Below are positions 8,258-21,117 of a DNA stretch of 32,000 nucleotides, piece after piece. The translations under genes and the position numbers were made by a program. The notes beneath the pieces were generated by a model. That model ran no database searches and was not told the DNA's origin. It worked only from the letters and a program-made list of their open reading frames with translations. This DNA is from an uncultured Fibrobacterota bacterium (GTDB lineage Bacteria > Fibrobacterota > Fibrobacteria > Fibrobacterales > Fibrobacteraceae): positions 5,685 through 37,684 of the forward strand of contig CAIRAY010000093.1 of NCBI GenBank assembly GCA_903876665.1, written 5' to 3'. The first letter of the stretch is position 1, and every line of letters begins with the position of its first letter.

Positions 8258-8462
8258 AAGCGCAAAAAAGATGGTATTAAAGTGTCATGCCCGGCACGGG
8301 CATCGCCGGTGCTTGTTGCTGCATTGTTCGGGCGTGGTGCGGTGATGGTCCACACAGTGGATAGTGCTCCACTAAGGGCAAAGCCCTAAGTGGCCAAGCT
8401 TTGCATAGCTGCCAGTAACCGTAACTGGCAGCACATCGGCCCTTCCGGCCATGACAACCGGG
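8258..8462. repeat. Tandem duplication, copy 1 (139-bp core 8258-8396, 40-nt copy-specific insert, 26-nt tail)
   Basis: The core is identical to 8464-8602 apart from C8291 versus A8497. The tail 8437-8462 matches 8605-8630 at 24/26 positions. The insert 8397-8436 carries a perfect 9-bp hairpin, 8408-8416/8424-8432. Confidence 0.9.
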
Positions 8463-8463
8463 C

Positions 8464-8630
8464 AAGCGCAAAAAAGATGGTATTAAAGTGTCATGCACGG
8501 CACGGGCATCGCCGGTGCTTGTTGCTGCATTGTTCGGGCGTGGTGCGGTGATGGTCCACACAGTGGATAGTGCTCCACTAAGGGCAAAGCCCTAAGTGGC
8601 CACTCGGCCGTTCCGGCCATGATAACCGGG
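8464..8630. repeat. Tandem duplication, copy 2 (139-bp core 8464-8602 plus tail 8605-8630)
   Basis: It is offset from copy 1 by exactly 206 nt across the core, and 138/139 positions are identical. Confidence 0.9.
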
Positions 8631-18944: not shown

Positions 18945-20489
18945 CTATTTACCACTCTTGGCAGGTTTCTTTTCTTCACCCTGGGCTAGCCAGGAGCGTA
19001 GCAATTCCGCGACGACCAGAGGATTGGAAACGGTGTAATCCTCTAGCTTTTGCAGAAGCTCGTTATGGCGCTTGACCCGCTCGGGAACTTCCTGCTTTTC
19101 ATCTTCCAGGTTGATTCCGGCAAATTTGGGCACGGGCGGATTCATGGCTTCGATCATGCCCACCGCGACCTTGCGCAGGAACACGAAGGCCAGCAAAAGA
19201 ATCAGGACAATAGTTCCACGTAATGCCCAGGTTTCGTAGACTTCGCGTTGCTCCATTCCTTCCAAAGCCTGCATTTCGTCTTCCACGTCGGAGCGGTCAA
19301 ACTGCACGGAAGCAACGAAGACGTCGTCGTTGCGCTCGGTGGAGAAGCCAACCGCATTACGCACAAGCTGGTTTAGAACTTGAATTTCATCGGGGGAGCG
19401 TGGCTTGAAAATCTTTTTGCCATCGGAACCCTTTTCGTAGGAGCCATCGACGGCCACGGACACAGTGAGGCGTTTGGTGGTGCCTGGACTCGAGACAATT
19501 TGCGACATGGTCCGGTTGATTTCGTAGTTGGTTATCGAGCCTTCCTTGGTCTCGTTGCCCACGATTGGGCTGTTGGTCTTGCTGCCGTCGTCGCGTTGTT
19601 CGGAGCGCACGACTTTTTTGGAAGGATCGTAGGTTTCGACGGTTTTGTTGATCTGGTCGAAGTCGAGTTCGGCACTAACTTTGACGCGGGATTTATTGGG
19701 ACCGACTACGCCGTCCAGAATCATCATGATCTGGGCTTCCATGTTGGCTTCGACGCCACGCTTGAGTTCCTGGTTGTGATCGGTGGCTTCGGCAACCACA
19801 TTGTCGGCAAAGCCACGGGTGAGCATGCTTCCATGATCGTCAAGAATGGTGACTTGGCGGGCACGCAAGCCTTCTACCGCGCTGGCCACCAGGTGCTGGA
19901 TTCCTTTGATCTGGCGTTCCTTAAGGTCTTGGCCGGGACGTAATTTCAATATTACCGAAGCGGTCGCTTCCTCTTTCTTTTCCATGAAGATGGTTTGTTT
20001 GGGAATGCTGATATGCACGCGGGCACCCTCGATTTCGCGAAAGGTTTCGATGGAGCGCATGAGTTCGGTTTCGACCGCACGCCGGTAATTGAGGTTCTGG
20101 GTAAAGTCGGTCATGCCCAATTGGCTTTTGTCGAACAACTCGTAGCCCTTGCCTTGTTCCCGTGGAAGGCCTGCGCGTGCAAGGTTCATGCGAATTTCAT
20201 GAATCGATTCCTTGGCTACGAGAATGGATCGGCCATCGTTGTCGAGCTCATACTCGAACTTGCCTTCCTTGAGGAATCCGGTGATTTCGGCAGCATCGCT
20301 GAGTTCCAGGTTTGCAAACAAAGTGGCTTTGCCAGAATCGCCTCCGCCAAACCCTTGAATGGAAATCACCACGACCAGCGCAATGAAGGTAATGCCAAGG
20401 ACCGCAACGATCAATCCCTTCTGCAAAGGATTGAAACGAACCCAAATATCGCGGAACTGTGTGAGTAGTTGTTTAAAAAATTCTGACAT
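18945..20489 (-). CDS. fliF: Flagellar M-ring protein FliF
   Basis: An N-terminal TM (LIVAVLGITFIALVVVI), the YscJ/FliF periplasmic domains, a second TM near aa 440, and operon position. Confidence 0.9.
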   Translation of the reverse strand: MSEFFKQLLTQFRDIWVRFNPLQKGLIVAVLGITFIALVVVISIQGFGGGDSGKATLFANLELSDAAEITGFLKEGKFEYELDNDGRSILVAKESIHEIRMNLARAGLPREQGKGYELFDKSQLGMTDFTQNLNYRRAVETELMRSIETFREIEGARVHISIPKQTIFMEKKEEATASVILKLRPGQDLKERQIKGIQHLVASAVEGLRARQVTILDDHGSMLTRGFADNVVAEATDHNQELKRGVEANMEAQIMMILDGVVGPNKSRVKVSAELDFDQINKTVETYDPSKKVVRSEQRDDGSKTNSPIVGNETKEGSITNYEINRTMSQIVSSPGTTKRLTVSVAVDGSYEKGSDGKKIFKPRSPDEIQVLNQLVRNAVGFSTERNDDVFVASVQFDRSDVEDEMQALEGMEQREVYETWALRGTIVLILLLAFVFLRKVAVGMIEAMNPPVPKFAGINLEDEKQEVPERVKRHNELLQKLEDYTVSNPLVVAELLRSWLAQGEEKKPAKSGK

Positions 20490-20599
20490 AAGTTTCGACT
20501 CTCCGCATTAAGATAGTCACATTTGCGATGAAATGCCATATCTTGTTTAAAATCAACAAGTTAAGAGTAGCGAAATTTGTGCCGAAAGAAGGGAGGTAC

Positions 20600-20804
20600 A
20601 AGTGGAAAGTGAACAGCCCGGGTTGCGGATCGGTTGGCTAGTGGAATACACAGGGGTGTATAAGTTCCCGTATTCCGCCTGGGCGGAACGGTCACTATTA
20701 AGTGGAAAATTGCGAAATGTATTCTCTTTCAGGGAAATTTGCCCGCAATTTTCCGTTTTCCACTAGGGTGTCGTGCAGAGAATCTGGCTGTTCACTTTCC
20801 ACTT
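20600..20804. repeat. Nested perfect inverted repeats (205-bp palindromic element) in the fliE-fliF spacer
   Basis: Outer arms 20600-20618 and 20786-20804 pair over 19/19 bp. Middle arms 20638-20646 and 20758-20766 pair over 9/9 bp and share the same centre. An internal hairpin, 20704-20714/20744-20754, pairs over 11/11 bp. Small hairpins lie at 20646-20661 and 20673-20688. The AGTGGAA core occurs 5 times. Confidence 0.85.
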
Positions 20805-20808
20805 CTCC

Positions 20809-21117
20809 TTAGCTTCTCATCCGGATCAATTCGCTGTAGGCATCCATGGTTTTGTTGCGGATTTCGAGCATCAGGTTGAAGGCGACCTTGGCTTCTTCTA
20901 CGGCGAGCATGACCTGGTGGACGTCCTTGACTTCGCCGGCGACCATCTTCTGGATCGAAGTGTCAGCGGTCTTTTGCATTTGATTGACATCGGTCATGAA
21001 ACCCTTGAGCATGTCGTCGAATTTGGGAGCGCCCGCTTTCCCGGGAGAGGATATCTTGGGATCAAGCTCCGTGGGTCCTTGGGGAATTAGGCCTTTAATC
21101 ATTTCTAGTTCATTCAT
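20809..21117 (-). CDS. fliE: Flagellar hook-basal body complex protein FliE
   Basis: FDDMLKGFMTDVNQMQ....MVAGEV.DVHQVMLA.EEAKVAFNLMLEIRNK...AY.E..RM is a classic FliE sequence. A GAGGA RBS lies upstream. Confidence 0.85.
   Translation of the reverse strand: MNELEMIKGLIPQGPTELDPKISSPGKAGAPKFDDMLKGFMTDVNQMQKTADTSIQKMVAGEVKDVHQVMLAVEEAKVAFNLMLEIRNKTMDAYSELIRMRS

Follow-up and report, generated by a model that had tools for sequence, protein, structure and literature searches.

Between fliE and fliF of an uncultured Fibrobacteraceae bacterium lies a 319-nt spacer, most of which is taken up by nested palindromes built around the heptamer AGTGGAA. What is such a block doing within a flagellar gene cluster? 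The original prediction, made from the window (the whole stretch of 32,000 nucleotides analysed here), left several answers side by side: a MITE-like or REP-like insertion, a protein-binding cruciform or operator array, or a structure that attenuates or processes the flagellar transcript. Comparison with the rest of the genome and with relatives now argues, at a probability of about 0.85, that the block belongs to a mosaic interspersed repeat that is non-coding and restricted to the genus, one copy of which was inserted here 4 nt past the stop codon of fliE. The fliE-fliF copy is assigned to the mosaic interspersed repeats, an already known kind of element, and its family is unusual in three habits: its adjacency to stop codons, its fixed orientation and its species-specific heptamers. 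A limited literature search found no earlier published description of the family. On this reading, studies of the flagellar locus are spared a tempting false lead, since the nested palindromes would belong to generic repeat DNA instead of forming a flagellar operator, and the range of known bacterial repeats gains a modular family from an uncultured lineage resembling Fibrobacteraceae.

The insert between fliE and fliF

Both genes are encoded on the minus strand. fliE (20809-21117, stop codon at 20809-20811) was identified from the ORF list and by NCBIfam model TIGR00205 (2.6e-23), and fliF (18945-20489) by TIGR00206 (4.9e-92), with orthologues 77-81% identical in a genome of the same genus (G001, contig L014) and in a Fibrobacter sp. 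MAG (L015). The ORF list bears out that the spacer (20490-20808) holds no ORF of at least 60 aa; the only longer ORF (105 aa, 20773-21090) is on the plus strand, antisense to fliE.

The whole repeat element is 208 bp long (20597-20804) and is recognized by its copies on other contigs and by its absence from the corresponding spacer of relatives. On the plus strand, which we call the A-to-C2 strand, its modules read A-B-C1-C2; the flagellar mRNA carries the reverse complement. Module A, the outer left arm (20597-20646), consists of a heptamer, AGTGAAC, a G+T-rich core and then CTAGTGGAA. Module B (20647-20700) is a nested mini-element of 54 nt with two hairpins, running from TACAC to CACTATTA between two heptamers. 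Module C1 (20701-20764) is a central hairpin whose loop varies across the family, and module C2 (20758-20804) is the outer right arm, whose end is the one that abuts stop codons throughout the family. The predicted stems were all reproduced: 20600-20618 pairs with 20786-20804 (19/19) within a longer 32-nt arm pair (84%), 20638-20646 with 20758-20766 (9/9) within a 12-nt pair (92%), and 20704-20714 with 20744-20754 (11/11) in C1. AGTGGAA was found again at 20601, 20640 and 20701 and its complement at 20758-20764 and 20797-20803, and the outer arm indeed ends at 20804, leaving a 4-nt gap before the fliE stop codon. Since AGTGGAA or AGTGGAG stands at every module junction, what had been described as a five-fold core is the linker of the family.

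The corresponding spacers of relatives are empty. In G001, fliE and fliF are separated by 77 nt without the element, and in the Fibrobacter MAG by about 21-39 nt, also without it and with gene order kept, so the search for empty sites suggested with the original prediction was successful. The final 75 nt or so of the window spacer align with the spacer of G001, and the insert starts directly after the stop codon; the alignable part (20490-20566, minus strand) represents the native spacer, and the spacer outside the element is unique within the genome. Divergence between these spacers is too great for exact insertion boundaries or a target motif to be defined. Of the other element sites, three were looked up in G001, and two of them lack a copy there. 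The sequence AAGTGG occurs 5 nt past the stop codon in the empty G001 site, possibly by chance. Within the native spacer, a palindrome, TTGTTGATTTTAAACAA, is kept in both species of the genus (window 20543-20560; L014 about 1125-1145); it may be a genuine control or promoter element of fliF.

A modular family stitched by heptamers

Because the assembly is a draft (4.3 Mb, 192 contigs, 92.9% complete) with repeats at contig ends, the following copy numbers are lower bounds: BLAST against the element's own genome gave 99 matches, or 68 places after merging, and two rounds of nhmmer with four module queries gave 71 places with module maps, including 39 matches to module A. Full-length copies lie on five other contigs at 91-96% identity and on one more at 80%. 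Partial copies are many, and several truncated ones sit at contig ends. The BLAST check of copy number, which had been proposed to distinguish a mobile repeat from a local signal, thus returned dozens of copies dispersed across the genome, and together with the empty site in relatives they back the MITE-like or REP-like insertion reading.

The copies differ in their combination of modules. About eight have the A-B-C1-C2 architecture (~207 bp), and others are A-C1-C2 (~154 bp), C1-C2 (~107 bp), A-B, B alone or B-B tandems. Modules always meet at an AGTGGAA or AGTGGAG heptamer, and tandem runs of these are frequent; 33 tandem heptamer pairs were observed versus 0.008 expected, and AAAGTGG is the top tandem 7-mer genome-wide with 221 occurrences. 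Heptamers of the ACTCATC/GATGAGT type are also commonly tandem in this genome (54 tandem positions).

These distributions bear directly on the proposal that the block is a flagellar cis-regulator, either an AGTGGAA operator array or a cruciform or attenuator that evolved for fliE-fliF. Its location inside the flagellar cluster, the dyad arrangement of its five heptamers and its very stable fold are what made this proposal attractive. But modules and heptamers occur at about 70 loci beside unrelated genes, including just after rho, and the element is missing from the spacer of the same-genus genome and of another relative with the same gene order. The original prediction had itself named many dispersed copies elsewhere as the observation that would speak against a role specific to this locus, and as such copies exist, the operator-array and flagellar-attenuator readings are refuted on its own terms; we consider a locus-specific regulator scarcely credible.

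The family as such is confined to close relatives, and its linker changes between them. BLAST of the element gave no match in 40 other relatives, nor did searches of plasmids, phages and viral contigs. A C2-like core is also present in G001, which has its own dispersed heptamer-hairpin family. This genome uses AGTGGAA, its sister species GGTTAGA/GGGTAGA, and the metagenome relatives AGTGATG or AGTGGAG, with B and C2 cores shared. The rho gene illustrates this difference: here its stop codon lies 4 nt from a C1-C2 element (C117:12025-12131), and after rho in G001 (C243:894-1014, L030) there is a hairpin of the other heptamer, GGTTAGA/GGGTAGA.

Module B is present or absent independently of the other modules. 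Its position is precisely between two heptamers, without any duplication of the target, and junctions that lack it read AGTGGAG-AGTGGAA at the corresponding place. Thirteen B copies share one sequence; the A modules directly adjoining an identical B, 12 in all, have a mean identity of 80% to each other and a minimum of 64%. For seven of these 12, the nearest A relative is one without B, and in three of the seven that relative is 100% identical. This distribution suggests that B was gained or lost precisely and more than once, or that modules were exchanged. Across 22 distinct B sequences, hairpin 2 shows covariation, five base pairs being changed on both sides and still paired.

Among 296 genomes of the phylum, the B pattern was found at 26 places in this genome, at 2 in G001 and nowhere else, and B-like units were detected on four metagenome contigs. 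In G001 and on three of the four metagenome contigs, B is flanked by heptamers of the GGTTAGA/GGGTAGA, AGTGATG and AGTGGAG types; on metagenome contig L049, for example, the flanking heptamer is of the AGTGATG type, which is also that of the ACTCATC/GATGAGT tandems of this genome. B is also found alone and inside other repeats. At C61:1-119 and C180:1-129, it forms head-to-tail arrays of the 54-nt unit without spacer, and the two contigs overlap through the array. In a separate family of repeats, each about 350-370 nt long, an extended hairpin comes first and then a B-like unit, which is nested in a GGCTCCTTC/GAAGGAGCC stem; this family is itself a mosaic (folding z -2.6 and -4.3), with sites at C82:7052-7423 (L016:2053-2424, minus strand) and C90:21029-21376 (L018) and further copies on C6, C38, C45, C94, C188, C92 and C190. 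Rfam gave no match for these ~370-nt B-bearing repeats, nor for six loci with B-like units. Domain V/VI of a group II intron was considered as the origin of B and rejected, as Rfam gave no match and the 2-nt bulge is, by eye, on the wrong side.

The mosaic-repeat reading can be put as a sequence of steps. The host element would be A-C1-C2, a palindromic, lineage-specific mosaic with a 19-bp perfect terminal inverted repeat, stitched by AGTGGAA and either placed or retained just past stop codons. B would have entered later, at a heptamer junction. The family would have spread, in the past or at present, by a trans-acting activity or by recombination at the heptamers. The fliE-fliF transcript would then carry a long imperfect hairpin showing C-rich internal loops, and any effect on fliF expression, be it attenuation, processing or stabilization of the upstream mRNA, would be incidental to a property of the whole family.

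Placement after stop codons and strand asymmetry

The position of copies relative to genes was determined with a heuristic ORF-based gene set and a direct stop-codon scan. On this basis, 36 of the 51 elements containing A or C2 have their C2 end no more than 45 nt from the end of an ORF of at least 100 aa, at a median gap of about 6 nt; five elements contain the stop codon themselves, as within AGTGAAC or AGTAAAC. Counted by side, 24 elements have a gene end at C2 alone, 4 have one at A alone and 12 have one at each side (binomial p 1.8e-4, a value that, like the other p-values given here, overstates independence, as the copies are mutually related). The fliE copy obeys the rule of stop codon and C2 end exactly, lying, as most copies do, where a 3' untranslated or intercistronic region begins. 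Orientation shows no dependence on local GC skew (26 of 41, p 0.12; the genes themselves lie on the G-rich strand in 52.7%), so it is the neighbouring gene, not replication, that the bias follows. Such tight adjacency and such orientation could mean that the family has been co-opted for a function, and "incidental" would then be too weak a word.

Folding adds a second asymmetry. For a 231-nt region, the fold energy is -89.2 kcal/mol (z -8.7) when read as mRNA and -98.1 kcal/mol (z -7.0) for the plus strand, and none of 200 shuffles matches the native energy on either strand. The plus strand folds better because the interiors of the outer arms are G+T-rich on it. The original prediction had taken the element to be strand-symmetric, and this was not borne out: fold energy, G.T wobbles and the C/G ratio are all asymmetric across the family. 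The mRNA-sense strand is C-rich, with a C/G ratio of 1.45 versus 1.03 in the 150 nt after other stop codons, and C exceeds G on it in 43 of 51 elements. Two C-rich cores in the arms are unpaired in the predicted mRNA-strand fold.

Placement and composition together raise the possibility that the family is functional and not purely selfish, acting as a portable mRNA element after stop codons, either a Rho-utilization or attenuator site or a protective 3' hairpin. In its Rho version, the unpaired C-rich loops would be exposed after the ribosome has departed. In either version, the element at fliE-fliF would end a flgB-fliE transcription unit, with fliF expressed from its own promoter just downstream. 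The short distance from C2 to the stop codon, the strong orientation bias with its independence of the replication strand, and the C-rich, unpaired cores all favour this alternative, as do the precedents of BIMEs as attenuators and SPRITE as possible terminators (PMC3049150). Both rho and rpoN are encoded in the genome, and a sigma-54-like -24/-12 motif, CGGCAC-N5-TCGCT (20569-20584, minus strand), falls between the element, which ends 13 nt before it, and the fliF ATG, which follows about 80 nt after it, as the sole match in the window. This motif is a weak lead, with at least one match in 20 of 100 shuffles and no genome-wide enrichment of the loose pattern; it is missing from the G001 spacer and sits in about 30 nt that have no counterpart in the sister species. 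An intrinsic terminator was rejected, since the element has no terminator-like site and its tail past the outer stem, GUACCUCCC, has no U-tract. A 19-bp outer stem is atypical for rut sites, stop adjacency could arise without any function if insertions interfering with promoters further downstream are selected against, and the emptiness of most checked sites in the sister species marks the element as dispensable. On balance, a functional 3' element is the less likely reading, though one that deserves to be taken seriously.

The strand asymmetry can also be read the other way round, with the A-to-C2 strand, antisense to the upstream gene, as the working strand, either as a single-stranded DNA intermediate of mobilization or as an antisense RNA reaching into the 3' end of the gene. 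This strand folds better than its complement in 34 of 39 copies, by 11.9 kcal/mol on average (p 7e-7), and for G.T wobbles at aligned arm positions the ratio in its favour is 80:41 for C1 and 110:31 for the A versus C2 arms. But the shuffled G+U-rich strand also folds better (-66.7 versus -52.3), so the asymmetry may be compositional and mirror the C-richness of the mRNA strand; given this same bias in shuffles, selection for structure on the antisense strand is inseparable from selection for C-rich unpaired loops in the mRNA. Moreover, no promoter was seen upstream of A and no HUH/Y1 enzyme was found, and the lack of GC-skew dependence stands against lagging-strand targeting. We regard this alternative as improbable and retain the mosaic interspersed repeat as the preferred reading.

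Likeness to known repeats and possible routes of spread

The closest architectural likeness is to the pneumococcal BOX element (boxA, boxB(n), boxC; PMC3049150). Here, too, A pairs with C2, and between them there may be no B, one B or a tandem. In both cases, a non-coding interspersed repeat is composed of modules, of which the end ones are complementary and the internal one is optional or repeated in tandem; a long stem-loop is predicted in the transcript, copies are enriched downstream of coding sequences, and neither has a convincing transposase (PMC3049150). In contrast to BOX, the present family has tandem-heptamer joints and tight stop proximity, and its B also occurs alone and in other repeats; the likeness is one of architecture, and Rfam gave no match; its orientation bias of 24 to 4 is much stronger than that of BOX, about 61% of which follow coding bias (PMC3049150).

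The REP and BIME sequences of enterobacteria, E. coli among them, and of pseudomonads, with their RAYT transposases, offer another comparison. As described earlier (PMC2817692, PMC3049150), they are extragenic palindromic units arranged in mosaics at 3' or intercistronic positions, as is the family here, and they can stabilize or attenuate transcripts. Unlike them, the present units are longer, they are joined by heptamer linkers, which are not a REP feature, and no Y1/RAYT gene was found. A six-frame search of the genome with PF01797 gave no RAYT match, although control genomes matched, and the units, which begin with AAGTGGAAAG or TACAC, bear neither a GTAG nor a CGTC head, whereas REP units are G+C-rich palindromes of 20-40 bp with such a head. 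With no RAYT gene and no conserved GTAG head, the family is not counted among the RAYT-associated REP/BIME sequences.

With MITEs, the family shares a length of no more than about 107-290 bp, terminal inverted repeats that match perfectly over 19 bp (19/19), the lack of any ORF of at least 60 aa, its many copies (71 genomic places) and an empty site. It differs from a classical MITE in having no recognised target-site duplication, no parent IS that could be found and modules that shuffle independently. Target-site duplications were not seen in the flanks of about 45 inspected copies, in which runs of heptamers blur the true ends. In this draft genome, the three transposase families searched, Y1_Tnp, TnpB and IS110, were not found, although control genomes gave matches, nor was a long autonomous element bounded by the ends of B; a partner gene may fall in the unassembled part of the draft. 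In view of the missing transposase and target duplication, mobility is deduced from distribution and not from mechanism.

Several specific routes and roles were also considered. Mobilization of the IS200/IS605 or RAYT type is unsupported, as there is no Y1 or TnpB and orientation is independent of GC skew, and IS110 with a bridge RNA is unsupported in the absence of a Transposase_20 match. Integron attC sites were compared as well: AGTGAAC...GTTCACT fits the R''/R' cores (RYYYAAC/GTTRRRY) in part, and the copies are dispersed beside housekeeping genes and not arrayed. A CsrA decoy acting through GGA motifs was rejected, the heptamers being paired in stems on inspection of the predicted fold. 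The Rfam search suggested with the original prediction yielded no family match for the spacer, only two chance-level CRISPR-repeat matches outside the element (E about 2). Three reverse-transcriptase genes are present (C191:5538-6227, C169:589-1179 and C137:12922-13446), with no link to the repeats seen; the two that were scanned against NCBIfam are generic and score below the cut-offs for group II introns, retrons and DRT.

A further parallel comes from cyanobacteria. Elhai et al. in 2008 reportedly described STRR tandem heptamers together with SDR elements of 21-27 nt in the intergenic DNA of Nostoc. The Nostoc SDR elements (<60 nt) are said to enter heptamer arrays or hairpins with apparent precision, with no target duplication and no known enzyme. 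On this account, the two systems would be alike in combining heptamer tandems with a very small repeat inserted precisely and without duplication, and in the present family both filled and empty junctions exist; they are unlike in phylum and sequences and in the size of the inserted unit, B being 54 nt versus 21-27 nt. The present family would thus echo these unexplained repeats and provide a possible second system in which to search for a mechanism.

Three features stand out in this respect: the near-exclusive placement, in one orientation, within a few nucleotides of the preceding stop codon, the difference in heptamers between sister species, and the apparent entry of the 54-nt module B into many diverged hosts, always at a single exact junction and by no known enzyme. 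They invite the thought that the genus has a dedicated system that writes or maintains arrays of hairpin modules right after stop codons, in one orientation and with a lineage-specific heptamer whose junctions are targeted by B. We consider this unlikely, albeit worth stating for its consequences. If it were true, the presence of each species' own heptamer after rho would need concerted evolution or a trans-acting template, and the elements would be functional 3'-end signals rather than junk.

The genome also contains repeats of other kinds. Within the window, a tandem module of about 140 bp upstream of sprA (8388-8457, within 8258-8630) matches a different high-copy repeat, for which BLAST found over 60 sites genome-wide, many of them at contig ends, and which also occurs at C180:2743-2901.
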